Positions 1,215-35,475 are shown, counted from the first letter of the stretch. The stretch is 36,648 nucleotides of DNA from Candidatus Eiseniibacteriota bacterium (GCA_034440375.1 JAWXBZ010000146.1:1-36648), one strand, 5' to 3'. Numbers and translations are program-made. Notes: generated by a model not told the origin, from the letters alone.

Positions 1215-2768
1215 ATGTCAAAATCGCCTGTCCGACGAGCGCAGACATCCGCCAATCCGGCACCCGTGGTGCCGCACCAGCCCGCAGGCGCGCCAAAACG
1301 GACGCCGCCCGGCCCTCCACCGCTCACCATCGCCTTCGTCACCTCGGAACTGGCGCCCTTCGCGAAAGCCGGCGGCCTTGCCGACGTCTCGGCCTCGTTA
1401 CCGGCCTATCTTCACAAGGCCGGGCACGATGTCCGTGTCTTCGTGCCGTTGTATCAAAGCATTCAATGGGAGCGATTCGGGATTCGGCCGGTGGATGGAG
1501 TGCAGGGTATTGGTGTTCGGCTGGGCGAGGCGACTTATACATTTGATTTGATGACGGCACGCCTGCCGGGCACGGGGCTGGATGTCTACTTCGTTCATTG
1601 TCCGGCGCTGTACGGACGGCCCGGTACGTATACGAGCGATCCCGACGAGCACCGGCGCTTCCTGCTTCTCGGACGGGCCGCCATCGAATCGATGCAGCGG
1701 CTCGGCATCGCACCGGACATTGTGCATGTTCACGACTGGGCGACGGCCATCGTACCGCTCTATCTCAAGACCATGTACGCATGGGATCAGCTCTTCGCCA
1801 GGACGAAAACCGTGCTCACGATCCACAACATCGGCTACCAGGGGACTTTTGGCACCGAGATACTCAAGGAGCTGAACCCGATCGGCACGCAATACTTTGA
1901 CGGCGAGGACCTGCGCAACGGGCGGGTGAATCTGCTCAAGACGGGGCTGGTGCATGCGCACCAGTTGACGACCGTGAGTCCGACCTACGCGCGGGAAATC
2001 CAGACGCCCGAGTACGGCTACGGACTCGATGGGTTGCTGCGGATGCGCTCGGGGGATCTGGCCGGGATATTGAACGGAGTGGATTATTCACAATGGAATC
2101 CGGCAACAGATGTGCACCTGGCGGCGAACTATTCACCGGATGATCTTTCCGGGAAGGGCGTGAACAAGGAAGCGCTTCTGGCCGCCGTGGGTCTGGCGCC
2201 CGCTTCGCAGGCGCCCGTTGTTGGCATCGTGAGCCGGCTGGCGCATCAGAAGGGGCTGGACCTGCTGTTTGACACGATGCCGGCCCTGCTGAACCGCCGC
2301 GATTTCCGATTCGTTGCGCTGGGCAGCGGCGAGCCGAAGTACGAAGGATTTTTCAGAAGCCTGGTGATCCGGTATCCGGGGCGGGTGTCTTTCTACTCGG
2401 GGTACCAGGAAAAGCTGGCCCACCTGATCGAGGCCGGCGCCGACATGTTCGTCATGCCGAGCCGTTACGAGCCATGCGGGCTGAACCAGATGTACAGCCT
2501 CAAATACGGGACGATTCCGGTGGTTCGGAAAACCGGCGGCCTGGCCGATACCGTGGCGATGTACGACCCCGCGACCGGCCAGGGGAACGGCGTCCTCTTC
2601 GAACACTTCACCTCCGAGGGGCTCCACTGGGCCTTGGATACCGCCATGAACCTGTACCAGAGCGACGACGACTGGTATCGGATGATGCAAAATGGCATGG
2701 TGGCCGATTTTTCGTGGGAAGTCGAAGGGGCACGATACGTGGCGCTGTATCGGCGCCTGGGCACGTGA
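1215..2768 (+). CDS. glgA: Glycogen synthase (GT5, ADP-glucose type)
   Basis: AFVTSELAPFAKAGGLADV (KxGGL), HVHDW, TIHNIGYQG, GILNGVDY, SRLAHQKG, MPSRYEPCGLNQMY, VVRKTGGLADTV. Start placed at ATG 1215 rather than at 780. Confidence 0.96.
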   Translation: MSKSPVRRAQTSANPAPVVPHQPAGAPKRTPPGPPPLTIAFVTSELAPFAKAGGLADVSASLPAYLHKAGHDVRVFVPLYQSIQWERFGIRPVDGVQGIGVRLGEATYTFDLMTARLPGTGLDVYFVHCPALYGRPGTYTSDPDEHRRFLLLGRAAIESMQRLGIAPDIVHVHDWATAIVPLYLKTMYAWDQLFARTKTVLTIHNIGYQGTFGTEILKELNPIGTQYFDGEDLRNGRVNLLKTGLVHAHQLTTVSPTYAREIQTPEYGYGLDGLLRMRSGDLAGILNGVDYSQWNPATDVHLAANYSPDDLSGKGVNKEALLAAVGLAPASQAPVVGIVSRLAHQKGLDLLFDTMPALLNRRDFRFVALGSGEPKYEGFFRSLVIRYPGRVSFYSGYQEKLAHLIEAGADMFVMPSRYEPCGLNQMYSLKYGTIPVVRKTGGLADTVAMYDPATGQGNGVLFEHFTSEGLHWALDTAMNLYQSDDDWYRMMQNGMVADFSWEVEGARYVALYRRLGT

Positions 2769-2793
2769 TACCCGTCAGGAAGGGGTGACCGCA

Positions 2794-4017
2794 ATGCACG
2801 TCGTCTTCATCGAACCCAACTTTCCGGCCAACCAGCGGGAGTTCGTCCGGGCCCTGAAAGAAGTCGGCGCCGTCGTCACCGGAATCGGCGAGTGCCCCAA
2901 AGACAGTCTGGACCCGCAGTTGCGCGAGTGGCTCACTCACTACGAACAGGTGCCGTCGGTTGTTGATGACGGCGCTCTGCTCGGTGTCGTCAACTGGATA
3001 AAGGAGCGGTCCCGTATCGACCGGCTCGAAGCGGTCGTGGAGGCTCATATCCAGTCAGCCGCCCGGGTGCGTGCGGCGACCGGTATTTCCGGTACCAGCG
3101 AACGAACCGCCTTCCTCTGTCGGGACAAGCCGGCCATGAAAGAGGTCCTGCGCGCCGGCGGAATTTCCTGCGCGGCCTCGGAGGGCATCGATTCGGCCGA
3201 GGCGGCCCGCGAGTTCGCGGGGACGGTGGGCTACCCGGTCATCGTCAAGCCGCGTGCGGCGGCGGGTGCCTCGGGCACCTATCGCGCGGGTAACGCCGAC
3301 GAACTCGATGCGGTCATCCGAACCAGCGGACTCGACCGTGGGCAGCCGGCGGCAATCGAGGAGTTCATCGAGGGGCACGAGGGGTTCTACGACACGATCA
3401 CGATCGGCGGGCAGGTCGTCCACGAATTCGTCTCACATTATTATCCGAACGTCCTCGAAGCGATGCGTAATCGCTGGATCAGCCCGCAGTTCATCGCCAC
3501 CAACCGGATCGACTCGGCCGAAGGGTATGCCGGTGTGAAGGAAATGGGCCGGCGCGTTCTGCCGCTCCTTGGCATCGACACGTCGGCCACTCATATGGAG
3601 TGGTTCGCTGGACCCAGGGGGCTGAAATTCTCCGAGATCGGCTGCCGTCCGCCCGGCGTGCGCGCCTGGGATCTGTACGCAGCGGCGAACGACATGGACA
3701 TCTACAAGGAGTGGGCGATGGCCGTCTGCTGGGGGCGCTCCTCGCAACAGGCTTCTCGGCGATTCTCGGCGGGCATCATCGCGCTGCGCCCGGAGCAGGA
3801 TGGTTTGATCTGCGGCTACTCCGGGCTCGACGCGATCCAAAGGGCCTTCGGGTCGTGGATCATCGATTACCACCTGCCACCCGACGGAACGCCGACGCAG
3901 CCGGTTGAGGCCGGCTACATGGCCAACGCCTGGGTCCAGATGAAACACCCCGACTACGACGAGCTGCGCCGAATGCTGAACCTGGTCGGCGAAACGGTCC
4001 GGGTGCACGCCCGTTGA
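2794..4017 (+). CDS. ATP-grasp domain protein (putative carboxylate-amine ligase)
   Basis: RDKPAMKE, GYPVIVKPRAAAGASGT, IEEFIEGHE, THMEWF, FSEIGCRPPG. AGGAAGGGG upstream of ATG 2794. Confidence 0.88.
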   Translation: MHVVFIEPNFPANQREFVRALKEVGAVVTGIGECPKDSLDPQLREWLTHYEQVPSVVDDGALLGVVNWIKERSRIDRLEAVVEAHIQSAARVRAATGISGTSERTAFLCRDKPAMKEVLRAGGISCAASEGIDSAEAAREFAGTVGYPVIVKPRAAAGASGTYRAGNADELDAVIRTSGLDRGQPAAIEEFIEGHEGFYDTITIGGQVVHEFVSHYYPNVLEAMRNRWISPQFIATNRIDSAEGYAGVKEMGRRVLPLLGIDTSATHMEWFAGPRGLKFSEIGCRPPGVRAWDLYAAANDMDIYKEWAMAVCWGRSSQQASRRFSAGIIALRPEQDGLICGYSGLDAIQRAFGSWIIDYHLPPDGTPTQPVEAGYMANAWVQMKHPDYDELRRMLNLVGETVRVHAR

Positions 4018-4991
4018 CGACATCCCCCGCCGCCGGTTCCACCGACATCGTCACCCTGCTCGGGCCGCAACGATTTCAGCGGACACTGCATGACGTGCTC
4101 CGGTCGCGCCAGATTGACGGCCCCGTGGCCGTGATCACCGCCGGGTGGCAGGAGCGCGAGCATGACGACCAGGAACTGCGGGACCACCTGGGCGGACGCG
4201 CCCTCAACCTGGAACTGCATACACGCACCGAGCGGATCTTCGACCACGACCCGGAGTTCGCTGCGGCACACCATGAGAAGCAGGCCATGTTGAAGGGCAT
4301 TCAGGAGCTTTACGACCTGCGCCTCGGGCATGTCATGGAGGGGGCCCGCCAGTTGCTCAAGCGGCGGGGCGATCTCAAGGTGCTCGGTCCCGAACGACTC
4401 GAAGCCCTGGAGGATGTGCGCGGCCTGGACCGGCGTCATCTCGATAGAATCCGGCAGGTTCATGTCGAGTTCGAGCAAATTTGGAATCCCGGCCGGCGCC
4501 CGGCAATCCTGGCCCAACGGGCGGAGGTTGAGCAAATGGTGCGACGCTCATCGGCCATTGCCATCGCCGGCGGTCATGTGGCCGTGCTGCTCAACCGCCT
4601 GCGCCTGTTCGGCTTAGGTCCCCTGGCGGCCGGCCGGCCGGTCATCGCCTGGGCTGCCGGCGCCATGGCGATCGCCGAGCGGGTCGTCCTGTTCTACGAC
4701 GATCCGCCGCACGGCCCGGGCAACGCCGAGGTGCTGGACGAGGGGCTCGGCCTGGTACGCAACATCGTGCCGCTGCCGCACGCCGGCGTCCGGCTCAAAC
4801 TGGAAGACAAATCCAGGGTGGCGCTCTTCGCCAGTCGCTTCGCCCCGGCGGAATGCCTCACGCTCGATCCTGGTGCCCGCCTCGACTGGCAGGATGGCCG
4901 CGTCGTCCCGGTGGCGGATGAAACGTTTGGAGGCCCGCGCCATGTGTTTCAACTCCGTCCCGATGGCGAGCTCTCGGTGGTCAAGGCATGA
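4014..4991 (+). CDS. Peptidase S51 (dipeptidase E/cyanophycinase)-like, class I glutamine amidotransferase-like fold
   Basis: VAVITAG, AIAIAGGH, VIAWAAGAMA (S51 nucleophile elbow, normally xSAGA), GLGLV..LPH. TTGA overlap with the upstream stop. Confidence 0.7.
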   Translation: MTTSPAAGSTDIVTLLGPQRFQRTLHDVLRSRQIDGPVAVITAGWQEREHDDQELRDHLGGRALNLELHTRTERIFDHDPEFAAAHHEKQAMLKGIQELYDLRLGHVMEGARQLLKRRGDLKVLGPERLEALEDVRGLDRRHLDRIRQVHVEFEQIWNPGRRPAILAQRAEVEQMVRRSSAIAIAGGHVAVLLNRLRLFGLGPLAAGRPVIAWAAGAMAIAERVVLFYDDPPHGPGNAEVLDEGLGLVRNIVPLPHAGVRLKLEDKSRVALFASRFAPAECLTLDPGARLDWQDGRVVPVADETFGGPRHVFQLRPDGELSVVKA

Positions 4992-6154
4992 ACCCGCAGC
5001 TCCCGGCCGGATGGGCCGGATCCGACGCCTTTCGCCGCTTCGCGGACCAACCGCTGGTCACGGCGGAGGCCGTTGATGCCTTCCTTGCCAGCCACCCGAT
5101 GCCGATCGTGGAGGGCTCCAACTGCACCTTCGTCTGGCGGGGCGAGGCGGACGAGGTTCGCCTGCGCCACTGGATCTTCGGCCTGGCCACCGCCCAGCCG
5201 TTCATGAGGCTGATCGGAACCGATCTATGGTTCATCACCATGGAACTGCCCGTCAAAAGCCGCGTCGAGTACAAGATCGAGGTGGAGCGGGGGGGGCGGG
5301 TCGAATTGCAGATGGACCCGCTGAATTCCATGATGGCCCGCGACCCGTTCGGGGCCAATTCCGTGGTGTCCGGTACCGGCTATGAGGTTCCCGACTGGGT
5401 CCGGTTCGACCCCGATGCACGCCCCGGCAATCTCGAGGATCTGGTCGTGAGGAGCCCGGCCATGGGGCGCGATCAGCATGTCATGCTGTATCTGCCGGCC
5501 CGATTCCGGCGCACCCGCCGCTATCCCCTCCTGGTCGTGCACGATGGTGGCGATTTCCTGGAGTACTCCGGGATGAAGACGATCCTTGACAACCTGATCC
5601 ACCGTTTCGAGATTCCGGAGATGATCGTGGCCTTTACCTATCCGGGGCAGCGTCTGGTCGAGTACGCGCACGACGAGGTTCACGCGCGGTGGCTGACCGA
5701 GGACCTGGTGCCGAAACTCGAGGCCAACTACCCGGTGTCCAGTCGTGCCGAAGAGCGGGGCCTGATGGGCGCCTCGTTTGGCGCGGTGGCCAGTTTTTCA
5801 GCGGCCTGCCGCTACCCGGGGTTCTTCGGCCGGCTTTTTCTGCTGTCCGGTTCGTTTGCCTTCACCGACATCGGCCGGCACCAGCGTGGCCCCTACTTCG
5901 ATCCGGTGGTGGAGTTCATCAACGGCTATCGAATGAACCCGCTGGCGGTGAGCAGCCGGGTGATGGTGACCTGCGGCACCTACGAATCGCTGATCTACGA
6001 GAATCGGAGCTTCATTCCCCTGCTCCAGAGCACCGGGATGGAGGTTCGATACACTGAGGCCCGCGACGGCCACAACTGGGAAAACTGGCGGGATCGCCAG
6101 CGGGAGGGGCTGGCCTGGCTGTTTCCAGGACCCCTCTGGATGGTGTATTTATAG
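4988..6154 (+). CDS. Fes/antigen-85-type alpha/beta-hydrolase (putative esterase) with N-terminal Ig-like (E-set/CBM48-like) domain
   Basis: YLPARF..RYPLLVVHDG, GASFG nucleophile, DGHNWENW catalytic His. N-terminal TFVWRGEADEV...LW...EYKI...DPLN pattern. ATGA overlap. Confidence 0.88.
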   Translation: MNPQLPAGWAGSDAFRRFADQPLVTAEAVDAFLASHPMPIVEGSNCTFVWRGEADEVRLRHWIFGLATAQPFMRLIGTDLWFITMELPVKSRVEYKIEVERGGRVELQMDPLNSMMARDPFGANSVVSGTGYEVPDWVRFDPDARPGNLEDLVVRSPAMGRDQHVMLYLPARFRRTRRYPLLVVHDGGDFLEYSGMKTILDNLIHRFEIPEMIVAFTYPGQRLVEYAHDEVHARWLTEDLVPKLEANYPVSSRAEERGLMGASFGAVASFSAACRYPGFFGRLFLLSGSFAFTDIGRHQRGPYFDPVVEFINGYRMNPLAVSSRVMVTCGTYESLIYENRSFIPLLQSTGMEVRYTEARDGHNWENWRDRQREGLAWLFPGPLWMVYL

Positions 6155-6231
6155 GGGTTCAAATCCCATTGTGACACGTCGCCGCGCACCGCCTCCGGTC
6201 GCGCGACTCCTTTCGAATCGAGGTCAACCTC

Positions 6232-7707
6232 ATGCCATCCGTCACCCGACGCATCGGGCTTTCCCTGGGCGCCGACATCTGCTGGCCCATCTGCTACGAA
6301 GAGATCCTGAAGCGGCTTGATCTGAACCTGTCGATCGGCAAGGACAGCGTCCGTTTCGAGGTCGAGCGGGTTTCCATCGAACCGTACAGCCTGTCGGGGC
6401 CGGCCAAGTACGACCTGGTCGTCGACCGCCTGACGCACTGGTACCACGTCAGCCGCGAATGGATCAAGAAATCGATCCTTGCCGATGACCTGTACGTCTT
6501 CAACAACCCATGGTCGATCCAGTCCAACGAAAAGCACACCAGCTACGCGGCCATGATGGCGCTGGGCTTCCCCATTCCTGAAACGTGGATGGTGCCGCCG
6601 AAGGAGTACGAACCGAAGGCCGATCTGGACGTCACACTCAAGAGTTACGCGCGCATGTTCGACCTGGGCGAAATCGGCCAGAAGATCGGCTACCCGCTCT
6701 TCATGAAACCGTACGACGGCGGTGGCTGGGTCGGAGTGTCCAGGATCACCAATGACGACTCACTCCGCGCTGCCTACGAACTCAGCGGTCGCCACATCAT
6801 GCACCTGCAGAAGGCTGTCGACCCGTTCGACCTCTTCGTCCGGGTGATCGGATTCGGACCGCAAACGTATTTCATCAAGTACGACGCGTCCAGGCCGCTC
6901 CACGACCGCTACACGATGGAGGAGAACTTCCTCACGCCGGCCGATCGAGAGCTCCTGGCCGACATGACGCTGACGATCAACGCCTTCTTCGGCTGGGATT
7001 TCAATTCGTGCGAGGTCCTGCGTCAGAATGGCCAGTGGTTTCCGATCGACTTTGCCAACGCCTGTCCGGACAGCCAGGTGACCTCGCTGCACTACCACTT
7101 TCCCTGGCTGGTCGTGGCCAATCTGAAGTGGTCGATTTACGTGGCCGCCACGCGCCGGAAGATGCGGAAGAACCTTGACTGGGAGCCGTTCTACGCAATC
7201 GCACGGACCGACGCGCCGTTTCGGGAAAAGCTCTCGCAGTACGCGGCGATCGCCCGTAAGCACTTCGAGCTCGATCACTTTCAGGAGTTCTGCGATCGCC
7301 ACCTCCCGCACCTCGAGGAAGCGGCCTGGGAATTCTTCGCCTCGGACATCGCCCGTCAGGCCGTGCAGCAAAAGACCGCCGCACTGTTCCCGGCCCACGA
7401 GGTGGAAACCTATACCGACCTCTTCTTCAGCCGCATCCAGATGTGGCGGGAACGAAGCTTCGATCGCATCCAACGGGAGAAGGCCGAGGCGATGAATCGA
7501 ATGCTGGGCACGCACCCGAAGGAGCCGGCGGTGACCCGTTCGGTGGCGCCGGCGAAACCGGTATCCCGAAACACGGCCGTCGTCCAACCGGCCCCAAGGG
7601 CCGTCAAGGCCGTCGCTCCCAGGGCCGCGACATCGGCCCGTCCGGCCACGCCATCTCCGGCCACGCCACCCGGAAAATCCACACCGACTCGGAAAGGACG
7701 GGCCTGA
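6232..7707 (+). CDS. RimK/glutathione-synthase-like ATP-grasp protein with Pro/Ala/Lys/Arg-rich C-terminal tail
   Basis: YVFNNP, NEKHT, PIPETW, GYPLFMKPYDGGGWVGV, HLQKAV, FNSCE, PIDFANACPD. Confidence 0.82.
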   Translation: MPSVTRRIGLSLGADICWPICYEEILKRLDLNLSIGKDSVRFEVERVSIEPYSLSGPAKYDLVVDRLTHWYHVSREWIKKSILADDLYVFNNPWSIQSNEKHTSYAAMMALGFPIPETWMVPPKEYEPKADLDVTLKSYARMFDLGEIGQKIGYPLFMKPYDGGGWVGVSRITNDDSLRAAYELSGRHIMHLQKAVDPFDLFVRVIGFGPQTYFIKYDASRPLHDRYTMEENFLTPADRELLADMTLTINAFFGWDFNSCEVLRQNGQWFPIDFANACPDSQVTSLHYHFPWLVVANLKWSIYVAATRRKMRKNLDWEPFYAIARTDAPFREKLSQYAAIARKHFELDHFQEFCDRHLPHLEEAAWEFFASDIARQAVQQKTAALFPAHEVETYTDLFFSRIQMWRERSFDRIQREKAEAMNRMLGTHPKEPAVTRSVAPAKPVSRNTAVVQPAPRAVKAVAPRAATSARPATPSPATPPGKSTPTRKGRA

Positions 7708-7709
7708 TC

Positions 7710-8438
7710 GTGAAGGAGGTGAACCGCTGGTATTCGGATCGCATCAAGCAGGACATCACCGTGGTTCGATGGGGACACTTCGGCACTCCGGTGCTGCTCT
7801 TTCCCACTGCCGGCGGTGACGCCGAGGAAATTGAGCGCTTTCACCTGGTGCGGGTCATCCAGCCGCTGATCGACGCCGGACGGGTCAAGATCTACTCCTG
7901 CGATTCGAGCGCCGGCCGTACCATCCTCGAGGGTCACAACAGCCGCCACTGCGCCTGGATGCTGAACCAGTACCAGAACTTTATCCGCCACGAACTGGTA
8001 CCGGCCATCCGGATGGATTGCCAGGACCCCGACATCGAGGTGATTGCCGCCGGAGCGTCCATCGGAGCCTTCAACAGCCTGGCCATCCTGGCCCGCTACC
8101 CGGAGGTCTTTCGGGCTGCCATCTGCATGAGCGGTACGTATGACATGGATCGATTCCTGCCGGGCGAAACGAGCGAGGACTACTACTATTCCTCCCCACT
8201 CCACTTCCTGCCCGGCCTGGGTGGCGACACGCTCGAGAAGCTCAAGACGCGCTTCGTTCTCCTGGCATCCGGCGAAGGCCGCGCCGAGAACATCGGCGAA
8301 TCATGGCGCGTGGCCCACATCCTGGGCCAGCTTGGCGTCCCCAACCGTGTCGACTCCTGGGGCGCCGAGTGGCACCACGATTGGCCCACCTGGCGAAACA
8401 TGATGCCGAAGTACCTGGAGGAGCTGGTTCCGGCCTGA
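7710..8438 (+). CDS. Putative esterase (alpha/beta-hydrolase, Fes/antigen-85-like family)
   Basis: WGHFGTPVLLFPTAGGD, GASIG nucleophile, AICMSG, HHDWPTW. GTG start 2 nt after the upstream stop, preceded by GGAAAGGA. Confidence 0.88.
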   Translation: MKEVNRWYSDRIKQDITVVRWGHFGTPVLLFPTAGGDAEEIERFHLVRVIQPLIDAGRVKIYSCDSSAGRTILEGHNSRHCAWMLNQYQNFIRHELVPAIRMDCQDPDIEVIAAGASIGAFNSLAILARYPEVFRAAICMSGTYDMDRFLPGETSEDYYYSSPLHFLPGLGGDTLEKLKTRFVLLASGEGRAENIGESWRVAHILGQLGVPNRVDSWGAEWHHDWPTWRNMMPKYLEELVPA

Positions 8439-8491
8439 TTCACAACGGAGCCGATACTCCCGGTTTTCTACTTGACTGCCGATACCCCGGC

Positions 8492-8763
8492 TCAGTTCAG
8501 AAGTGTCTTGATCGCCGTCCAAGTGGTCGGAAGAATTGTCACCGGATCGCCGACACGCGTACCGGTCGTCCGGCAGCACATGTCTTCCGGATCGTTGCAT
8601 CGGAAAGGGGCGCAGGGGCCCGGGCCAATTTCAAAGTCGACAAAGATGTCGAAGAAACTGTCGACAGCGCCGGCGGCATCCGGAGTCATGTCATGCAGTT
8701 CGATAAAGACGTCGAAGAACGACATCCGACCGCCCGGCGACACACGGTGACAGTACGTTTCAT
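8492..8763 (-). pseudogene. Remnant of a secreted protein with C-terminal PTTWTAIKTL motif, probably internally deleted
   Basis: GGGAGG RBS and ATG at 8763 (MKRTVTV...) are out of frame with the downstream SFFDVFIE...DSFFDIFVD...PVTILPTTWTAIKTLLN* segment. Confidence 0.5.
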
Positions 8764-8832
8764 GAAAAGGGGTCCTCCCGGGAAGCGGGGACTTGGGCAG
8801 CCGTGGCGATGGAATTCGTCACTGGGCCAATT

Positions 8833-8871
8833 TGACTCAATTATGTCACAGGATTGTCGCTGATCTGTCGC
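8833..8871 (+). promoter_or_regulatory. Four 11-bp-phased direct repeats (TGACTC, TGTCAC, TGTCGC, TGTCGC); putative transcription-factor site
   Basis: Hexamers start at 8833, 8844, 8855 and 8866. TGAC-N8-GTCA at 8833-8848 is also an inverted repeat. Confidence 0.45.
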
Positions 8872-8933
8872 CAATGCCGGGATTTCCTCATTATGCCAAT
8901 CAGTAACCTCTTTGGTAGTGTCAGAATCCGGAA

Positions 8934-8949
8934 TGGCGTGGCCGTTGCG
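8934..8949 (+). promoter_or_regulatory. Putative sigma54 (-24/-12) promoter
   Basis: TGGCGTGGCCGTTGCG has exact GG-N10-GC spacing with TGGC and TTGC boxes, about 65 nt upstream of the TTG at 9014. Confidence 0.5.
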
Positions 8950-9013
8950 CCAGCCATCCGTTCCGGCTAAGATTCACCCTCACAAAAGATTATCCGCGCG
9001 GGGGCGATTTATT

Positions 9014-10933
9014 TTGGGTACCTTGGAACTCCAGACTGATTTTTCGGGCGTCGAGCGTCGTAAATTCATGCGGGCGCTGCTGGCCGACGTTCGGGCCCTG
9101 GAACGAATGATGGCCGAAGGGATGATCGAGGACGGAGTTCGTCGGGTCGGTGCCGAGCAGGAAGTCTTCCTGGTGAACAAGGCCTGGCATGTGGCTCCGG
9201 CGGCCGACGACATCCTTCCCCTCCTTTCCGACGACCACTACACAACCGAATTCGGCATCTTCAACCTCGAGTTCAACATGGACCCGCTGGTCTTCGGCGG
9301 GGATTGCCTCTCCCGGATGGAGAGTCAGATCAATGAACTCCTGTTGAAACTGCGGGTGGCGGCCGCGAAAAAAGATGTCGAGATCCTGATGGTCGGCATT
9401 CTGCCCACCATCCGGAAATCAGACCTGGGTGAGGAGAACATGACTCCCCGGGCCCGCTATCACGCCCTGAATCGGGCTCTGACGGCACTCCGTGGCGGCA
9501 CGTATGAGTTCTACATCAAGGGGGTGGATGAGCTCCTCCTGAAGCACGATTCGGCCATGCTCGAAGCGTGCAATACCAGCTTTCAGGTTCACTTTCAGGC
9601 CGGGGCGAAGGAGTTCGCCAACCTGTATAACATTGCCCAGGTGGCCGCCGGGCCCGTGCTGGCCGCCGCCACCAACAGCCCTCTCCTCTTCGGGAAGCGG
9701 CTCTGGGCCGAAACACGCATTGCCCTGTTTCAGCAGGCCGTGGATACCCGCTCGTCGGGTCACCACATGCGCGAGCGGAAATCCCGGGTCACGTTCGGCA
9801 ACGACTGGTTGCGCGGATCGGCAGCGGAAATCTTCAAGGAGGACATCGCCAGTTTCCGGGCGCTGGTCGGTATTGAGCAGGACGAGGATCCCTTCGAGAT
9901 TCTGAAACGGGGCGGAGTCCCCGAGCTGAATGCCCTCCGTTTGTTCAATGGCACGGTCTATCGATGGAACCGACCCTGTTACGGCATCATCGACGGCAAA
10001 CCCCATCTCCGCATCGAGAACCGGGTCCTGCCGGCCGGCCCCACGGTGGTCGATGAGGTGGCCAACGCCGCATTCTGGTTCGGCGTCATCAGCGGGCTCT
10101 CCGACCAGTACGATGACATTACCCAGGTCATTGACTTCGAGGCCGCCTCCATGAACTTCATGTCGGCCGCCCGGATCGGCCTCTCGGCCCAGTTTCACTG
10201 GCTGGAGGGGAAGGAAGCACCGGCCCAGACGCTGATCCTGGATACACTGCTCCCGATGGCCCACGCGGCGCTGATCCGCCGCGAGGTCAAGGCCGCGGAC
10301 GTCGATCGCTACCTCGGCATCATCGAGCACCGGGTTCGCACCGGCAGGACCGGCAGCCGCTGGATGATCACATCGCTGGCCGGCCTGAAAGACAAGGGAA
10401 CTCCGGGCGAACGGCTGAACGCACTGACGGCCGCGTCGATAGCCCGCCAGAAGGAAGGCTTGCCCGTCGCGGAGTGGAAGCCGGCTGACCTTTCCGAAGC
10501 CGGGGGCTGGCAGCATAACTATGCCGTCGTCGAGCAGTACATGGTCACCGAGATTTACACGGTGCAGCCCGATGAGCCGATCGACCTGGTGGCCAACCTG
10601 ATGGAGTGGCAGCGCATCCGCCATGTGCCGGTCGAGGATCAGGAGCATCACCTGATCGGCATCGTGTCGTACCGCGCGGTGCTCCGGGCACTGGCGCATG
10701 GTCATCACAGCCTGGACGGCATGCCGCTGGCGGTGGCCGACATCATGAAGAAGAATCCGCTGTCGGTAGCACCGGATACCCCAACGCTCGACGCGATCGC
10801 CCTGATGCGACAGCACCAGATTGGTGCGCTGCCGGTGGTTCACAACGGACGGTTGATCGGCATCATCACCGAACATGACTTTCTCGACATTGCCGCCGAA
10901 CTTCTGGAACAGAAACTTCGGGAGCATGCGTGA
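9014..10933 (+). CDS. Glutamate-cysteine ligase family 2 (GCS2)-like carboxylate-amine ligase fused to a C-terminal CBS pair
   Basis: VGAEQEVFLV, TTEFGIFNLEFN, CNTSFQVH, ATNSPLL, YRWNRP, LRIENRVLPAGP. CBS motifs IRHVPVED..LIGIVS and IGALPVVHNGRLIGIITEHD. TTG start at 9014 is inferred. Confidence 0.85.
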   Translation: MGTLELQTDFSGVERRKFMRALLADVRALERMMAEGMIEDGVRRVGAEQEVFLVNKAWHVAPAADDILPLLSDDHYTTEFGIFNLEFNMDPLVFGGDCLSRMESQINELLLKLRVAAAKKDVEILMVGILPTIRKSDLGEENMTPRARYHALNRALTALRGGTYEFYIKGVDELLLKHDSAMLEACNTSFQVHFQAGAKEFANLYNIAQVAAGPVLAAATNSPLLFGKRLWAETRIALFQQAVDTRSSGHHMRERKSRVTFGNDWLRGSAAEIFKEDIASFRALVGIEQDEDPFEILKRGGVPELNALRLFNGTVYRWNRPCYGIIDGKPHLRIENRVLPAGPTVVDEVANAAFWFGVISGLSDQYDDITQVIDFEAASMNFMSAARIGLSAQFHWLEGKEAPAQTLILDTLLPMAHAALIRREVKAADVDRYLGIIEHRVRTGRTGSRWMITSLAGLKDKGTPGERLNALTAASIARQKEGLPVAEWKPADLSEAGGWQHNYAVVEQYMVTEIYTVQPDEPIDLVANLMEWQRIRHVPVEDQEHHLIGIVSYRAVLRALAHGHHSLDGMPLAVADIMKKNPLSVAPDTPTLDAIALMRQHQIGALPVVHNGRLIGIITEHDFLDIAAELLEQKLREHA

Positions 10934-11895
10934 TCTTGCGAGCCGACGATTTTCCTCCCGTGATGAGCGCTCCACCCACGCGCCGCCTGGGTATGGCGCG
11001 GTCCGAACATCCGGGCCCGACGCTGCTGATCATTGCCGGCATCCATGGCAATGAGCCGGCGGGTGTCGCCGCGGTACGCTGTTTCCTCGACACGTTCTCG
11101 GAACAGGAATCGGACTTCATCGGAGAGATCGTGGCGCTCTGCGGCAACATCGGGGCATCCCTCGCCGGGAGGCGATACCTGGATCACGACTTGAACCGTC
11201 GATGGAGCTGCGAGCGGGTAATGGGCCTGGCTTTGGCCGGCCCGTCCGATCGCGACCGGGAGGATGACGAGCAGCTGGCGCTCTCCCGGGAAATAGACGA
11301 CGCCATGGCCCGGGCCCGAGGGCCTGTTTATTTTCTCGATCTGCACACGACATCGGCCGCCGGTTACCCATTCAGCATGATTGCCGACCACCCCGAGCAG
11401 CGGGAATTCGCCCTCCAGTTTGAGCTGCCGATCCTCCTGGGGCTCCTGGAGCAGGTCGACGGCGTTCTCCTGGAGTATCTTCGGCGTCGAGGGTGTATCT
11501 GCCTGGGGATTGAGGCGGGCCAGCACGAGCGATCTCAGTCGATCGAGCACCACCTGGCCGCCCTCCGAATCGCCGTGGTGGCCGCCGGCCTCCTGCCGGC
11601 CGATTCGACACCGGAACTGCTCAAAACCAGCCTTGAAACTCTTAATCGCGCGCGCGGCGAGTTGCCCCGCCTGATGCGCGTCGAGAATCGACATGGCATC
11701 CGCCCGGACGATCAGTTCCGGATGGAGCCGGGATTCGCCAACATCGAAATGATTGAAAAGGGGCAGCTGTTGGCCCGCGACCGGAAGGGCGAAATTCGTG
11801 CCCGCGAAACGGGCATTCTGTTCATGCCGTTGTATCAGGGCCTGGGCGATGATGGATTCTTCACCGGTCGGGCCCTGACGATCGATATCGAGTAA
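10930..11895 (+). CDS. Succinylglutamate desuccinylase/aspartoacylase family (M14 Zn amidohydrolase)
   Basis: AGIHGNEPAG (HxxE), DLNRRW, LDLHTTS, IEAGQH. GTGA overlap with the ligase stop. Confidence 0.88.
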   Translation: MILRADDFPPVMSAPPTRRLGMARSEHPGPTLLIIAGIHGNEPAGVAAVRCFLDTFSEQESDFIGEIVALCGNIGASLAGRRYLDHDLNRRWSCERVMGLALAGPSDRDREDDEQLALSREIDDAMARARGPVYFLDLHTTSAAGYPFSMIADHPEQREFALQFELPILLGLLEQVDGVLLEYLRRRGCICLGIEAGQHERSQSIEHHLAALRIAVVAAGLLPADSTPELLKTSLETLNRARGELPRLMRVENRHGIRPDDQFRMEPGFANIEMIEKGQLLARDRKGEIRARETGILFMPLYQGLGDDGFFTGRALTIDIE

Positions 11896-11979
11896 TGTTG
11901 CGCGATGCGCCGCCGGGAGTTCCGGCGACGCCTGTTAAGGCCGCCGATCACAACACGGCGGGCCGGAAAGGATACTGTC

Positions 11980-12744
11980 TTGGTCATTCCGATTTTCTTC
12001 GTCAGTCACTGGATCATCTCCGTCTTTTTCCAGAGTTTCTTTCTGCACCGGTATGCCGCCCACAAGATGTACACGGTCGGCCCCCGGACAGAGCGTGTCA
12101 TCCACTTCCTGACCTGGCTGACCCAGGGGGCCTCTTACCTCCTTCCCCGGGCGTACGCCATCCTGCACCGTGAGCACCATGCGTACTCGGACAGTGAGCT
12201 GGATCCGCACTCGCCGCACCAGAACTCCAATGTCTTCACCATGATGTGGAAGACCAAGAAGCGCTACGGCGGCATTTCGCGCCGGACGCTGGCCGTCGAA
12301 AAACGATTCCTCGGCGGCTATCCCGAGTGGCCATTGCTCGACAAGATTGGTGAGTCGTACATCGGCCGCACGGCCTGGGTCGTGGCCTACTTCTTCTTCT
12401 ACATGGCCTTCGCCACCGCCTGGTGGCAGTGGCTCCTCTTTCCGTTCACGATTGCCATCGGGCCGGTCCATGGCGCCATCGTCAACTGGTGCGGCCACAA
12501 GTACGGCTATCGCAACTGGAACACGGGTGACGACAGCAAGAACACGCTGCCGATCGACATCGTGACCATGGGCGAACTCTTCCAGAACAATCACCATCGT
12601 TCGAGCCGCCGGGCGAATTTTGCCACCCGGTCCTACGAGGTCGATCCGACCTTCGTGATCATGCGGCTACTCGACAAGATGCGGGTGATCACCCTGCTGA
12701 AGCCGCGCGTCAGTGAGGCCGCCACGGCGGCCAAGGCGGCCTAG
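11980..12744 (+). CDS. Membrane acyl-CoA/fatty acid desaturase (delta-9-like)
   Basis: His boxes HRYAAH, HREHH and QNNHH; DPHSP; VNWCGH; hydrophobic segments. TTG start after GGAAAGGA. Confidence 0.9.
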   Translation: MVIPIFFVSHWIISVFFQSFFLHRYAAHKMYTVGPRTERVIHFLTWLTQGASYLLPRAYAILHREHHAYSDSELDPHSPHQNSNVFTMMWKTKKRYGGISRRTLAVEKRFLGGYPEWPLLDKIGESYIGRTAWVVAYFFFYMAFATAWWQWLLFPFTIAIGPVHGAIVNWCGHKYGYRNWNTGDDSKNTLPIDIVTMGELFQNNHHRSSRRANFATRSYEVDPTFVIMRLLDKMRVITLLKPRVSEAATAAKAA

Positions 12745-14007
12745 GTGATCCGTCGACTCATCGCCCCTGGCCTCATCCTGACCGCCGCGCTGCTCGTCGG
12801 GTGCGGCGGCCAAAAGGCCGGTGTTCAACCCATGATCGACGAGTTCTCGAGCTATGAGCAGGATGTCATGGCACTGAACCCGCTCCCTCCGGCGTTGGAT
12901 GTCCTGAAGCTGGGTGAGTCGAAGCGGGACGCGGCGAAGCCCCTGTCCGACAAGGGACAGGTCAAGCTGGCCCAGCCGGCAATGGAGGAAGCCCTGGCCG
13001 ACGTCCGGGTGGCACTGGCGCTGGCCCGGGCCGACGCGGCCCGCAACAAGGCCGACGGCTGTCTGCAAAAGGTGGACCGTGCTCGGGAGGGGTGGAACGA
13101 GGTCATCCTCATGCTCGAGCAGACAGAGAGAGTGGCTGCCCGAAGCGTTTCGGAGATTGCGCGGGAGGAACCGGAAATGCCGGCCCAGCCGCCGCTCCCC
13201 GCTTCGACGATCGACGGTGCGGCCGTGCCGACCATGCCCACCACCGAACTGCGGCCGGCCTTTGCCGCCTGGCGGGACCTGGCCCGGAACGCGGGGCTGA
13301 GCGCCGGCGATCTGGAGACCCGGTTCAACGACCGGGCGGGTCTGGCCGACGATCCCAAGGGGAAGGACCTGGACAAGGCCCGTAACCGCTACGTGGCCGC
13401 CCGGACACTCCAGGAAATGGAGGCCCGGGTGCGGGAGCAGCGGGCGGTCGAATTGTGCGCCCAGTCCACCGAACTGTCATCCCGCTTCGGCGATTCCCGC
13501 GAGCAGGCCCTCCGTGCCACCCTGGAACTGGAGCGAAGCCTCAAGGACGACTTGAAGACCGAGTTGGACGCTGCCCGGGCCGAAGCGGAGGCGCGCCAGT
13601 CGGACCTGTACGAATCGCTGCAGAAGCTGGAAGGGCGATTCGCCAGCATCAAGAAGACCGCCCGCGGCACGATCGTCAGCCTTGCGGACATTCTCTTCGA
13701 TTTCGGCAAGGCCACGCTGAAACGGGATGTCGAATTCAACCTGGTGAAGATTGCCACGATCCTCGAGCAGTATCCCGAAATGCAGATCGCGGTCGAGGGG
13801 CACACCGACAACGTCGGCTCGGAGGAGTACAACCTCGAACTCTCGACGAAGCGTGCCGCAGCCGTGGCCGATTTCATGGCCACCCAGGGCCTCACGAAGG
13901 AGCGGCTCACGGTGGCCGGCTACGGATTCTCGCGACCCCAGGAAGACAATTCCACCGAGAGCGGCCGGCAAAAAAACCGGCGCGTTGATCTGGTCATCAA
14001 CGAGTAG
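12745..14007 (+). CDS. OmpA-family peptidoglycan-binding lipoprotein with long helical/coiled-coil N-terminal region
   Basis: Lipobox LLVGC; ILFDFGKATL, VEGHTDNVG, NLELSTKRA, GYG..RP, NRRVD. Confidence 0.9.
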   Translation: MIRRLIAPGLILTAALLVGCGGQKAGVQPMIDEFSSYEQDVMALNPLPPALDVLKLGESKRDAAKPLSDKGQVKLAQPAMEEALADVRVALALARADAARNKADGCLQKVDRAREGWNEVILMLEQTERVAARSVSEIAREEPEMPAQPPLPASTIDGAAVPTMPTTELRPAFAAWRDLARNAGLSAGDLETRFNDRAGLADDPKGKDLDKARNRYVAARTLQEMEARVREQRAVELCAQSTELSSRFGDSREQALRATLELERSLKDDLKTELDAARAEAEARQSDLYESLQKLEGRFASIKKTARGTIVSLADILFDFGKATLKRDVEFNLVKIATILEQYPEMQIAVEGHTDNVGSEEYNLELSTKRAAAVADFMATQGLTKERLTVAGYGFSRPQEDNSTESGRQKNRRVDLVINE

Positions 14008-29087: not shown

Positions 29088-32000
29088 CTAGTCACCGAAT
29101 CCGAGCGAGATGCCGAAGCTCGAACCGGTCGTGAAGTCCTCGCGGACCTTTCCACCCTGCGTCTTCCGCTGGGGGGTGTTGGTGATGTTCTTGCCGACAA
29201 TCTTGAGTTTGAGCGCGCGACCGAGGCGCTGGGAAAGCGAGGCATCCAGCGTCACCCGTCCCTCCTCGTACACATCCGGCTGGCCGTAAACCCCCACGTC
29301 GGTCAGGCGTCGACCGAACTTGTTGAAGAAGAATGACGCCTCCGTCCGGCTGGAACGACTGGTGTAAAAGAGCGCCAGGTTCTGGACGAGCCTCGACTGG
29401 TCGGTGAGCGGCCGGACGCGGGAGGTCTGGACACCGTCAGACCCGGTGAATTCGACCCGGCTGTCGACGATGATCAGGTTGCCACTGACGGAGAACCGGT
29501 TCAGCCCTCCCCATAGATGGCCCAGGCCGAGTCGCCCTTCGAGCTCCAGGCCGTAGTTTCGTCCTTCGGGTGTGTTCACCGGCTGCTTGCGCGGGGATTC
29601 GCCGCCCTGGATATTGTTTTCAATGGCGTCGGTCAACTTCTTGTAGAAACCGCCAACCGACACCAGTTCGGAGAGCGATGGGAAGAGTTCCCAGCGGAGA
29701 TCATAGGAATCGATCTCGGCCCGGCGCAGGGCTGGATTGCCGATGAAGGGCGCACCACTCTCGTAATCGGTTATCTCGGTGGGAGACAGCTCGCGGAGGT
29801 CCGGCCGGTTCAGCGTCCGGCTCCAGGAAGCACGAACATTCTGCCGGCCGGCCGGCGCCCAGGTCAGGTTGATCCCCGGCAGGAAGTCACGGTCGTGATG
29901 CTGATTCCCGGCAAACTCATTGGTGAAGGCATCTTTCGCGTAGTACTCGATGCCCTGCCAGGCGTTTTCCATCCGTCCGCCGGCAACCGCTCGCAGCCTC
30001 TTGAGAAGTGGAAAATCGAACATGAAATACCAGGCACTGATTGACTGGTCGCCCCAGGTGTAGTCGGTATTGCGCGTATTCTCCTTGAACTCCAGGCCAT
30101 GCCCGATATTGGAATTGGCCAGAACCGAGTCAACCGGCTCCCCCAGATCGAGGCCGGAGAGGGGTCGATAAGTGAACCGACGGGTCCAGGAATTGCGTTC
30201 CTTGTCCGAGACCCATAGACCGGTGCGGAATCGGGCCTCCCCTTCCGCGTAGGAGTAGAACGGGATGGTCAGGTTCAACTCGGCGCCCTTCTCGGTGTCG
30301 TCCAGGAAGCCGAACAGGCGGTCAGCGCCTCGCCCGGAAAAGGCCCAATAGGTGGTGTCGCGGACGGTCGAGCCGTTCTCGCCTTCCTCGACGATCTGAT
30401 TGGTGGTCCTGGCGTAGAAGCTTTCACGGCGGTCGGGCTCGTCGCGATGGGCCATCGATCGATTGAGCTTCCAATCGAGGCGCGATCCGAGGAACGGCAT
30501 ATGATGTTCGCCGCTCAGCGTTCCAGAAAAAAGGGCACGTTCCTGGAACAGGAGCCGATCCACCCGGAAAGTGGCGTTGGCGTCGAGGTAGTACCCCTCG
30601 TACCGACGCGCCTCGTCATCACTGCTCGACGTGTACAGGGTGTTCAACTTCAGCGAGGACTGCTCACCGAGGCGGAGGCTCAGGTTGCCGATTCCGCCCA
30701 GCAGGACGCTTTGCGTCGTGCGTGTTACCTCGTAGTCACCCTTGATCGTGGAGAGAGTGTTGTCCTCATAGTTCAACACCTTGCCAACATCCGTGTTGTA
30801 TCCGTTCTGGTAGGCCAGGGCGCCCACGAAACCGAATGGCTTGTCCATGACCGTGGTGCGCTGCCCGAGGGCCATGTTCCAGGAACTATTCACCGGCGGA
30901 CGACTGTCCTGAACGGACCAGGTGGGGTTGAACGACCGGGCCAGGGTGAGGAAATCATCCTTGCTGAATCCAGGGCCGTCCGGCTTCAGCGGGCTTCGCT
31001 GCACAATACGCTTATTGCCGGCCATGTCGGCGACAAGGTCGGGGAAGCTCCGCGCGCCGTCATCCATGCCGAGGAAATCCAGATTGCCGCCGGCATATCC
31101 GAGGCCGTCCGTGCCGGTGGTGCCGGAGCGCCAGCCGGTTCCGATTGAACTTGTCAGCACCGGATTCTCAGGGACATCCCGGGTACTGATCTGTACCGAG
31201 GCGCCGCCGAAATCACCCTGCAGGTCCGGTGTCCAGGTCTTCTGGAGCACCACGTTGTCGAGCAGGCTGGCGGGAAAAATGTCCATCGGAACGACCTTGC
31301 GATTGGCCTCGGGGCTGCCGACCCGCACGCCGTTGACCTGGGTTGAGGCATAACGCTCACTCATCCCGCGGATAACGAGGAACTTGCCGTCCTTGACTGA
31401 CACGCCGGTCACACGGCCGAGCACCTGGGCCGCGTCGGAGTCGGTGCCCTTCTTGATCGATTCACGGGAAATGCCGTCGGTGACCGCGGCCGACTGGCGA
31501 CGGGTCGAGAGTTCCGACACGGCCGAATTTCGAATGCGATTGCCGCGGACGTTGACTTCCTGCACCGTGACCTTGGCCTCCGGCAGCATTTCGACGCGAA
31601 GGGCCGTATTGAAGCCGGAGGAAACCGACACGCGGGAAATGACCCGCCTGGCATAGTTCAGCGCCAGAACGGTGACTTCATACGTTCCAGTCGGCAATTT
31701 GATGGAAAATCGGCCGTCCGCGCCGGTGACGACCCCGTACGGCCGGACGGTCGGATCGACCGGCATCGGCGCAAAGGCCACGGATGCCTGGCTGATATTT
31801 TCGAGAGTGCTGAGTCCATCGACGACGTGCCCGCGAAACTCCTTCAGCGTCTGGTCGGTCAGCGTCAGCTCGAGGGCGACCGCCTCGCCCGGGTTCACCT
31901 CGACGCCCTCCAGGGTCTTTGCCGGCCAGAGGAGGTGTTCGACCAGGACGTTCCAGCGGCCGGCGCGGACCTCTGCGCTCCAGAACCCTTCCGCGTTGGT

Positions 32001-32321
32001 CGTCAGGACACGCTTTGGCCCCGAGCCGTCGGCCGGGGTCAGGGTCACGTAGGCGAAGGCCAGCGGCTCCCCGCTGTCGACTTTGGTCAGCCGGCCGCGG
32101 AGGACGCCCCTGGCCGACTCGGGCAACGCTGCCGCTACCTTACTTTCCGAGACCACCAACGCACTATCCGAGACCGCCACCTCCTTATCTGAATCCTTCA
32201 CCTGAGCCGCTGCCGGGGCAAGCCCAACAGTCAGCGGGAAAAACCCGACAGTCACCGGAGCCGAAGCTCCGGTGACCGCCAGGATAAGTATGGAGAGTAG
32301 TGCCGAACGGAGTCTTGTCAT
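29088..32321 (-). CDS. TonB-dependent receptor with two N-terminal carboxypeptidase-regulatory-like domains
   Basis: Plug DGISRESIK..DAAQVLGRVTGVS..IRGMSERY, DIFPASLLDNVV.KTWTPD; barrel GNPAL, YDLRWELFP, GLELE, KNIT; ends ISLGFGD. Confidence 0.92.
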   Translation of the reverse strand: MTRLRSALLSILILAVTGASAPVTVGFFPLTVGLAPAAAQVKDSDKEVAVSDSALVVSESKVAAALPESARGVLRGRLTKVDSGEPLAFAYVTLTPADGSGPKRVLTTNAEGFWSAEVRAGRWNVLVEHLLWPAKTLEGVEVNPGEAVALELTLTDQTLKEFRGHVVDGLSTLENISQASVAFAPMPVDPTVRPYGVVTGADGRFSIKLPTGTYEVTVLALNYARRVISRVSVSSGFNTALRVEMLPEAKVTVQEVNVRGNRIRNSAVSELSTRRQSAAVTDGISRESIKKGTDSDAAQVLGRVTGVSVKDGKFLVIRGMSERYASTQVNGVRVGSPEANRKVVPMDIFPASLLDNVVLQKTWTPDLQGDFGGASVQISTRDVPENPVLTSSIGTGWRSGTTGTDGLGYAGGNLDFLGMDDGARSFPDLVADMAGNKRIVQRSPLKPDGPGFSKDDFLTLARSFNPTWSVQDSRPPVNSSWNMALGQRTTVMDKPFGFVGALAYQNGYNTDVGKVLNYEDNTLSTIKGDYEVTRTTQSVLLGGIGNLSLRLGEQSSLKLNTLYTSSSDDEARRYEGYYLDANATFRVDRLLFQERALFSGTLSGEHHMPFLGSRLDWKLNRSMAHRDEPDRRESFYARTTNQIVEEGENGSTVRDTTYWAFSGRGADRLFGFLDDTEKGAELNLTIPFYSYAEGEARFRTGLWVSDKERNSWTRRFTYRPLSGLDLGEPVDSVLANSNIGHGLEFKENTRNTDYTWGDQSISAWYFMFDFPLLKRLRAVAGGRMENAWQGIEYYAKDAFTNEFAGNQHHDRDFLPGINLTWAPAGRQNVRASWSRTLNRPDLRELSPTEITDYESGAPFIGNPALRRAEIDSYDLRWELFPSLSELVSVGGFYKKLTDAIENNIQGGESPRKQPVNTPEGRNYGLELEGRLGLGHLWGGLNRFSVSGNLIIVDSRVEFTGSDGVQTSRVRPLTDQSRLVQNLALFYTSRSSRTEASFFFNKFGRRLTDVGVYGQPDVYEEGRVTLDASLSQRLGRALKLKIVGKNITNTPQRKTQGGKVREDFTTGSSFGISLGFGD

Positions 32322-35326: not shown

Positions 35327-35475
35327 CGATTTCCTCCAGGTCGCAGATGCGTGGCGAGGACACTTGGTGACAACCGTCACCAGCGTTTGGTCGCGACGTG
35401 GAAGGTAGAGAAGCGGCTTGTCGGCGGGATGAAGTTGATGTGGCGTCATGGCGACGAGAATATTGTCGGGCTTCC

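Follow-up and report, generated by a model that had tools for sequence, protein, structure and literature searches.

A glycogen synthase clade linked across bacterial phyla to a cassette of ATP-grasp ligases, esterases and a cyanophycinase-like protein

In textbooks, glycogen stands as the carbon reserve of bacteria, with a pathway taken to be complete. None of the classical glg operons (glgBXCAP) described in the literature we searched contains ATP-grasp ligases, S51-like proteins or PF00756 esterases. Such proteins are described from other settings: the cyanophycin system pairs an ATP-grasp ligase (CphA1) with an S51-fold hydrolase (CphB); RimK is a poly-alpha-L-glutamate ligase acting on ribosomal protein S6, and LysX/ArgX act on the carrier LysW; the L-amino-acid ligases include solved enzymes such as 4wd3 and 3vot; and Fes and the CE1 feruloyl and acetyl-xylan esterases combine a hydrolase domain with CBM48-like N-terminal domains. 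Here we describe a window of 36,648 nucleotides (nt) from a Candidatus Eiseniibacteriota bacterium (JAWXBZ010000146.1), in which six co-oriented genes at 1215-8438 encode, in order, a glycogen synthase (GlgA), an ATP-grasp ligase (AG1), an S51-like protein, an esterase (Est1), a second ATP-grasp ligase (AG2) and a second esterase (Est2). The window is the entire contig C146 of a 3.96-Mb, 264-contig, 93.7%-complete assembly (genome G000). Phylogeny and co-occurrence indicate that the glycogen synthase of this cassette is a dedicated one, tied to it tightly and non-randomly, and the likely role of the module is to add amino-acid units to stored glycogen, or beside it, and to remove them again.

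At the family level, the gene set does not have the defining features of the cyanophycin system, of Fes or of RimK. It shares with the cyanophycin system the pairing of an ATP-grasp ligase with an S51-fold hydrolase and the make-and-break logic of a reserve. However, no CphA-type multidomain synthetase or Mur-ligase-like domain was found in the scanned cassette proteins (a set without the paralogs on contig C220, described below), and the cassette has instead four discrete ATP-grasp ligases, two esterases and an apparently dedicated GlgA. Its S51-like protein also differs from cyanophycinase in an inserted helical hairpin of about 110 residues and, in this genome, in having no nucleophile serine. 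The CphA synthetase model TIGR02068 found nothing in G000, and in about 7 of 34 cassette genomes it scored above its cut-off or close to it; since CphA and the cassette coexist there, the cassette is neither a replacement for nor an accessory of CphA. The likeness to classical glg operons lies in a bona fide TIGR02095 GlgA and, in some loci, a GlgB or GlgC gene beside the cassette. Our literature search returned no paper on this gene set, although the amidoligase-neighbourhood survey of Iyer et al. 2009 lay outside its coverage and may describe parts of it; nothing was found on the cyanophycinase of Pseudobacteroides cellulosolvens. New in this work are the GlgA clade and its copy-number pattern, the co-occurrence in a second phylum, the folds of AG2 and the S51-like protein, the loss of the nucleophile and the AG1 paralogs beside glgB.

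Genes were called from a listing of open reading frames (ORFs) together with Pfam and NCBIfam profile searches. All six lie on the plus strand: GlgA at 1215-2768, AG1 at 2794-4017, the S51-like gene at 4014-4991, Est1 at 4988-6154, AG2 at 6232-7707 and Est2 at 7710-8438. The AG1 ATG (2794) lies 25 nt from glgA, and orthologs do not use the ORF's upstream ATG at 2692. AG1 and the S51-like gene overlap in a TTGA read directly from the sequence at 4014-4017, the S51-like gene and Est1 overlap in an ATGA at 4988-4991, Est1 and AG2 are 77 nt apart, and AG2 is separated from Est2 by 2 nt (TGA-TC-GTG, with the GTG at 7710). From these junctions the six genes are predicted to be co-transcribed. A weak terminator-like hairpin at 6124-6140 lies just 5' of the Est1 stop; the regional total of such sites does not exceed the shuffled expectation. 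The preliminary description of this DNA had reported the same string with its TTGA, ATGA and 2-nt junctions and had named the products as a glycogen synthase, two ATP-grasp ligases, two esterases and an S51-like protein; the sequence bears out the string, and family searches agree with the identities.

The window's GlgA, an ADP-glucose-type glycogen synthase, scored 548.3 bits against TIGR02095 (cut-off 328.45; model positions 2-477) and matched PF08323 at E 9e-77. It carries a Pro/Ala-rich N-terminal extension of about 36 residues. Hallmark motifs of GlgA are an N-terminal K-T-G-G-L loop and a C-terminal E-P-C-G-L / T-G-G-L. Both YEPCGL and KTGGLADTV are present and conserved in the window's protein, which reads KAGGL where its orthologs have KTGGL (Thr16Ala, a departure from 28 of 30). 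A tree of 82 GlgA sequences was inferred by an IQ-TREE quick search (LG+G4, midpoint root, three long branches flagged) with support from the Shimodaira-Hasegawa-like approximate likelihood ratio test (SH-aLRT) only. All 32 AG1-adjacent GlgAs fell in one clade of 43 rows, that of the window's GlgA (SH-aLRT 95), and every one of the remaining 11 rows came from a cassette-carrying genome. The 30 relatives of the same class that have no cassette served as a comparison, and a single GlgA was fetched for the tree from 23 of them. All were placed outside the clade, 22 of the 23 in one separate clade and the other (L150/G020) elsewhere. The second GlgA of G000, on contig C229, belongs to that same separate clade. 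AG1-adjacent copies of any phylum were 48.5-62% identical to the window's GlgA, versus 39-47% for the copies of cassette-less class relatives. Six positions, all in the N-terminal half, separate the clade's GlgAs from others, which we regard as a lead only.

Copy number follows the cassette as well. Of 41 genomes of the class, 11 had the S51-like gene, and two GlgA matches (E up to 1e-60) were present in 8 of these 11 cassette genomes versus none of the 30 without it. A class-wide sample of Gammaproteobacteria was uninformative for co-occurrence, as the seed itself was the only one of 81 genomes in which AG2 was found; one gammaproteobacterial order was therefore sampled instead (41 genomes, 17 AG2-positive). 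There, GlgA was encoded in 16/17 AG2-positive versus 7/24 AG2-negative genomes, or 15/16 versus 7/24 when the unpublished genome G161 was set aside. Among genomes from other phyla, the cassette-linked GlgA was the sole GlgA in four of five.

At E up to 0.001, AG2 has over 6,000 homologs; identity to it among the best 120 is 61-83%, and every named one is annotated as 'hypothetical'. A species-genome scan returned 592 AG2 relatives, and the best-scoring 80 loci, some of them related to each other, were studied by mapping the window's proteins with tblastn, which can miss divergent genes. By record title these loci span seven phyla (Eisenbacteria, Myxococcota, Planctomycetota, Pseudomonadota, Actinomycetota, Acidobacteriota and Gemmatimonadota). 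Where AG2 had at least 8 kb of flank on each side (44 loci), we found Est1 in 42, the S51-like gene in 37, Est2 in 34 and an AG1 ortholog in 32, while 23 had at least two AG1 paralogs (30-38% identical). A glgA gene lay within 10 kb in 24/44, for which our own rough estimate of the chance rate in a 20-kb span is below 1%, and an AG1 ortholog directly followed glgA in 20/44. Genes for the GCS2-CBS and AstE-like proteins described below were present in 8/44 and 2/44. Across all 80 loci, Est2 followed AG2 in 62, and glgA was found in 32, directly before AG1 in 27 of these; glgB was present in 5-6 and glgC in 6. The check proposed in the preliminary description, whether the ligase and esterase genes are repeatedly linked to glg genes in different phyla, gave a clearly positive answer. 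The system is modular, with a core of S51-Est1-AG2-Est2, a second part of glgA-AG1 with a pair of AG1 paralogs, and a third of GCS2-CBS with AstE.

Few further partners emerged. Neighbouring genes were clustered with a simple ORF caller that picks antisense shadow ORFs in high-GC DNA, which makes its counts unreliable; beyond the known parts it returned only GlgB, GlgC and a PGM1-type ATP-grasp protein, in 3-4 loci each, and no recurring transporter or regulator. No conserved small ORF, such as a precursor of a peptide that is made on ribosomes and modified after translation or a LysW-like carrier, was found within the cassette or next to it in a scan of 2,044 small ORFs from about 84 loci; the best cluster comprised four loci of close relatives, all in shadow frames. 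The PGM1-type protein (PF24923, PF18105) is a fifth kind of ligase; in four gammaproteobacterial loci (e.g. L072:6775-8313) it comes after glgA-AG1.

AG1 gave weak Pfam matches spread across several families (CPSase_L_D2, E 9e-7). The L-amino-acid ligases 4wd3 and 3vot, of similar length, are its nearest solved sequences, with 4wd3 aligning over residues 37-277, a partial coverage, at E 1.5e-11. By sequence, AG1 would therefore be placed closest to the L-amino-acid ligases. It differs from them in the low level of similarity and in being tied to glgA rather than to a secondary-metabolite cluster, and its conservation across phyla (73% mean column identity in 48 orthologs from several phyla) is far higher than is usual for antibiotic-pathway ligases.

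Two paralogs of AG1 are encoded elsewhere in the genome, at C220:146-1351 and C220:1363-2538, directly before the genome's only glgB (C220:3505-5373). In a relative of the same family (G001, locus L185), glgB, both paralogs, glgA, AG1, S51, Est1, AG2, Est2, GCS2-CBS and AstE lie within one 17-kb stretch. As G001 has all these genes together, C220 probably adjoins the start of the window, although no end overlap was found between C220 and C146. Whole-genome family searches placed two glgC genes on C63, glgB on C220 and debranching-like genes on C138 and C148; the sole match to the glycogen phosphorylase family was partial and weak (42.9 bits, on C257), and no glgX scored above its cut-off in this 93.7%-complete assembly. 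The preliminary description had noted that glgB, glgC, glgP and glgX are missing from the window. This is correct, the family searches putting these genes on other contigs, but the missing glgB is no sign of a special system, because the genome's glgB directly follows two paralogous ligase genes. The same description had limited the system to six genes; the set stands, but its extent does not, as it takes in the AG1 paralogs beside glgB on C220 and the GCS2-CBS and AstE/AspA-like genes downstream.

AG2 is a strongly conserved, divergent ATP-grasp ligase. Its Pfam matches were confined to a sub-threshold Dala_Dala_lig_C (19.5 bits versus a cut-off of 24), with no match to PF08443 (RimK family) at E up to 0.01, and the ESM Atlas returned solely clusters labelled 'putative ATP-grasp domain-containing protein'. 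Mean column identity across phyla was 54%. An AlphaFold2 model built from a 67-row alignment (predicted local distance difference test, pLDDT, 83.8) consists of a RimK/LysX/synapsin-like core (residues 1-310), a helical C-terminal domain (310-425) and a disordered basic Pro/Ala/Lys tail (436-491). Residues 4-310 have the ATP-grasp fold, matching many ATP-grasp enzymes at Z 17-20. The best VIA-align matches were RimK 5zct (Z 20.3, root-mean-square deviation 2.8 over 264 aligned residues), synapsin 1pk8 (Z 19.1), ArgX 3vpb (Z 18.6) and ITPK1 2qb5 (Z 18.6); as these are near ties, the fold does not single out a reaction. The protein differs from RimK, LysX and ArgX in its sequence (13-16% identity) and in the added helical domain and tail, and no S6-like or LysW-like partner gene is conserved near the cassette. 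ATP-grasp enzymes able to form esters are known, namely the VanA-type D-Ala-D-Lac ligases and the microviridin ligase MdnC; MdnC ranked 36th among the fold matches of AG2. The basic end of the protein (about residues 410-491, encoded at 7460-7707) varies in length among orthologs and is lacking in many. We presume it to be reminiscent of the histone-H1-like tails of some granule-associated proteins.

The S51-like protein was recognized by PF03575 just under the cut-off (22.2 versus 23.9 bits, E 1.3e-4) and by no NCBIfam model. Its AlphaFold2 model (pLDDT 91.3), in which a long two-helix hairpin is inserted at about residues 68-177, was compared with 48,161 chains in an unbiased search without Foldseek pre-filtering. 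The top six chains were all S51 entries: pseudo-CphB 7uqv (Z 16.3), cyanophycinase 3en0 (Z 16.0) and four peptidase E entries (Z 13.2-14.5). The next match, to an unrelated protein, had a Z of 9.5. The model thus has a cyanophycinase/peptidase-E fold, in keeping with the S51-like label of the preliminary description; serine peptidase activity in this genome, however, does not follow from it. The nucleophile serine is replaced by Ala214 (GCT, 4653-4655), so that the elbow reads AWAAGAM, and His228 is replaced by Tyr (TAC, 4695-4697). The WSAGAM elbow has its serine in 47/47 other orthologs and 10/10 class relatives (57/57), and His228 is kept in 46/47 and 10/10. Ser214 lies in a G-x-S-A-G elbow that aligns weakly (E 0.2) to the peptidase E nucleophile elbow CSAGS. 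Of the 36 columns at least 90% conserved among the 47 orthologs, the window's copy departs at exactly these two, and it keeps His256 (LPHA). Contigs from four sequencing runs (three microbial-mat, one sediment) cover both codons and show no difference; the substitutions are therefore real and not an assembly error. With its nucleophile lost, this protein cannot act as a serine peptidase and may at most retain ligand binding. The pattern suggests that the protein was switched to a non-catalytic form in a targeted way rather than that the gene is decaying. The top fold match happens to bear the name pseudo-CphB.

Both esterases belong to PF00756 (cut-off 22 bits), Est1 with 68.0 bits (E 1.4e-18) and Est2, the smaller, with 36.9 bits (E 4.5e-9). 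Est1 has the two-domain build of Fes and the CE1 enzymes, a beta-sandwich N-terminal domain followed by an alpha/beta-hydrolase domain. The candidate catalytic residues are at least 95% conserved: Ser263 (GASFG) and His362 in 61 orthologs of Est1, and Ser117 (GASIG) and His223 in 72 orthologs of Est2. Solved relatives of Est1 include Fes (2b20, E 3e-9), the feruloyl esterases 8bbp and 6rzn, and an 'isoamylase protein' (6ne9, E 9e-8); 6ne9 and 8bbp cut polysaccharide esters and have CBM48-like N-terminal domains. The window's own N-terminal domain scored 22.4 bits against PF11806 (Enterochelin_N; cut-off 27.1). Among 58 orthologs of Est1, all matched PF00756, 49 matched Enterochelin_N (E up to 0.01), 7 matched CBM_20 weakly and 1 matched CBM_48. 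Est1 is set apart from Fes by its score against the Fes equivalog NF007758 (80.8 bits versus a cut-off of 222). A siderophore role was considered and rejected, as no nonribosomal peptide synthetase or uptake genes recurred nearby in the neighbour clustering. Many CE1 enzymes are secreted; Est1, inspected by eye, has no signal peptide and is predicted to be cytoplasmic.

Two more genes of the system lie downstream. The first (8912-10933, plus strand, start codon uncertain) encodes a GCS2-type carboxylate-amine ligase, by a weak GCS2 match, fused to a CBS pair (E 1e-29). Here it is about 470 nt downstream of Est2, which it abuts in loci of Planctomycetota and Myxococcota; an ortholog follows Est2 in 13/80 loci (e.g. 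L023, with a 10-nt gap) and in G001. The second (10930-11895, plus strand) overlaps its stop and encodes a zinc amidohydrolase of the succinylglutamate desuccinylase/aspartoacylase family (AstE/AspA-like; PF24827, E 1.3e-17); an ortholog follows GCS2-CBS in 3/80 loci and in G001.

We tentatively favour, at a level of confidence well short of an even chance, a module that links amino-acid or peptide units to the glucan through an ester: an ATP-grasp ligase would attach them, the other ligases would extend them and the two esterases would take them off. The glucan, an alpha-1,4-glucan, would be made by the cassette-type GlgA together with GlgB and GlgC, whose genes lie elsewhere or nearby. AG2, AG1 and the two paralogs of AG1 would activate amino-acid carboxylates as acyl-phosphates; one ligase would esterify a glucose hydroxyl with a unit, and the others would extend it through peptide bonds. 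The PF00756 esterases, kin of Fes and of CE1 polysaccharide esterases, could then remove the ester-linked units, and the S51-like protein, joined where present by the AstE-like hydrolase, could degrade the released peptide. The net result would be a reversible decoration of glycogen serving as a combined carbon and nitrogen reserve. The preliminary description had proposed either an acylated or aminoacylated alpha-glucan or a peptide storage polymer produced beside glycogen, and both are still candidates. We infer every substrate in this scheme, and the ester link to the glucan. It is favoured because esterases are part of the core and the relatives of Est1 include polysaccharide esterases, and because a cassette-type GlgA is retained in addition to the housekeeping copy and glgA leads the string.

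Several observations weigh against an ester-linked decoration. Most of the parts (AG1, AG2, the cyanophycinase-like fold, GCS2 and AstE/AspA) speak for amide chemistry and not for ester chemistry, four or five ligases are many for a simple decoration, and we know of no precedent for an ATP-grasp enzyme that esterifies a polysaccharide. The carbohydrate-binding matches of Est1 are weak (best E 0.0018) and confined to a minority of orthologs. The core is found without glgA within 10 kb in 20/44 loci. Of 20 cassette genomes without a linked glgA, 19 encode a GlgA elsewhere, none being shown in G058, and at least 12 have only GlgAs from outside the cassette-type clade; one (G054) has a clade-type, AG1-adjacent GlgA on another contig. 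Among gammaproteobacterial genomes with the core, three of five checked have no AG1-type gene at all. The shared GlgA clade and the co-occurrence would also follow if one storage island were transferred as a unit, and related genomes are non-independent samples in the co-occurrence counts.

The main rival is a separate, cyanophycin-like amino-acid polymer made alongside glycogen, with glgA merely co-regulated or co-transferred in one storage island, which we consider a real but doubtful possibility. AG2, with RimK, a poly-glutamate synthetase, as its nearest fold (Z 20.3), would polymerise an acidic backbone, AG1 and its paralogs, nearest to L-amino-acid ligases, would add side-chain residues, the S51-like protein, nearest to pseudo-CphB and cyanophycinase (Z 16.3 and 16.0), would depolymerise the product, and side-chain links, whether isopeptide or ester, would be cut by the alpha/beta-hydrolases. 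Such a polymer accounts better than the ester decoration for the S51, RimK-like and L-amino-acid-ligase-like parts. The additional GCS2 and AstE/AspA-like genes suit amide chemistry, a CBS pair on the GCS2 ligase would suit control by energy state, and a core apart from glgA in 20/44 loci is what a separate product would allow. However, it is not clear what the two near-universal core esterases would do in an all-amide polymer. If any GlgA sufficed, a second copy of the cassette type in 8/11 class genomes would be hard to explain; glgA comes first in the string and directly before AG1 in 27 of 32 glgA loci, and a true cyanophycin synthetase coexists with the cassette in about 7 of 34 genomes. 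If the product were instead a small soluble peptide or N-acyl amino acid, such as a compatible solute or signal, built stepwise, recycled and coupled in its pool to carbon storage, the presence of several ligase types would be expected. L-amino-acid ligases make di- or oligopeptides, known S51 peptidase E enzymes (fold matches at Z 13-14.5) cut dipeptides, and AstE/AspA enzymes, going by the family name, cut N-acyl amino acids. We nevertheless judge this unlikely: AG1 (73%) and AG2 (54%) are conserved across phyla to a very high degree that is unusual in a pathway for a small metabolite, the neighbourhoods contain no recurring transporter or regulator, and the dedicated GlgA clade is left unexplained.

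High conservation would suit a macromolecular substrate, and the fold matches of AG2 to RimK (Z 20.3) and ArgX/LysX (Z 18.6) raise the prospect of a protein modification in the manner of RimK on S6 or LysX/ArgX on LysW, in which GlgA or a granule protein would be modified, the hydrolases would reverse the modification, and glycogen synthesis would be regulated. GlgA adjoins AG1, and the six N-terminal-half positions that set cassette-type GlgAs apart are consistent with this. We think it quite improbable, as no conserved small ORF that could be a carrier or precursor lies in or near the cassette and AG1 resembles ligases of free amino acids. It is also conceivable that glgA, without a functional link to the cassette, stands beside an unrelated ligase-hydrolase operon by chance or by hitch-hiking, given the 20/44 loci without glgA within 10 kb and the cassette genomes that use other GlgA types. 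This was already disfavoured and is very improbable, for glgA lies within 10 kb in 24/44 loci drawn from seven phyla, the GlgAs linked to the cassette group in a clade of their own, within the class only cassette genomes have two GlgA copies, and GlgA is found in 16/17 AG2-positive versus 7/24 AG2-negative genomes of one gammaproteobacterial order.

Up to five ligases and four hydrolases travel with an apparently dedicated glycogen synthase across at least seven phyla. The broadest form of the ester-decoration proposal is that glycogen in thousands of species carries a reversible, ATP-dependent aminoacyl or peptidyl ester, written by ATP-grasp enzymes on the glucan of a dedicated GlgA and erased by cytoplasmic PF00756 esterases; we would sooner doubt than believe it. 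If it is true, it would represent a combined carbon-nitrogen reserve and the first ATP-grasp enzyme to acylate a polysaccharide, and a decorated glucan would change what bacterial glycogen is. If a separate polymer is made, it would be a second nitrogen store of the cyanophycin type, built from different parts. Either outcome would reveal an uncharted and abundant storage metabolism in soil, sediment and mat bacteria. As the enzymes are soluble, carriers are apparently in culture and the assays are ordinary, the question is directly testable.

Natural fusions were examined as well and were not used as evidence. Three long relatives of AG2 proved to be frame-shifted or mis-joined gene calls, and eight long relatives of AG1 were single-sequence clusters with partial coverage, among them one GlgA+ATP-grasp and two ATP-grasp+esterase calls. 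A record from a cultured Actinoplanes (P0127) combines AG1-like and Est1-like parts in a single call, which is probably an artefactual fusion; the record points to a culturable carrier of the cassette.

Some features of the rest of the window were also recorded. The gap of about 470 nt between Est2 and GCS2-CBS (8439-8911) contains an imperfect direct repeat in two copies, roughly AAAGAYGTCGAAGAA, in a hairpin-like context near 8640-8730. Downstream of the AstE-like gene, fatty-acid desaturase-like and OmpA-domain genes follow in the same direction at 11905-14007, the gaps being 9 and 0 nt; in the 80 related loci neither turned up next to the cassette. On the minus strand, at 29088-35449, and in keeping with an FCB-group (Eisenbacteria-like) organism, a TonB-dependent receptor with carboxypeptidase-regulatory-like domains adjoins a 1,043-residue protein with a type-9-secretion sorting tail.

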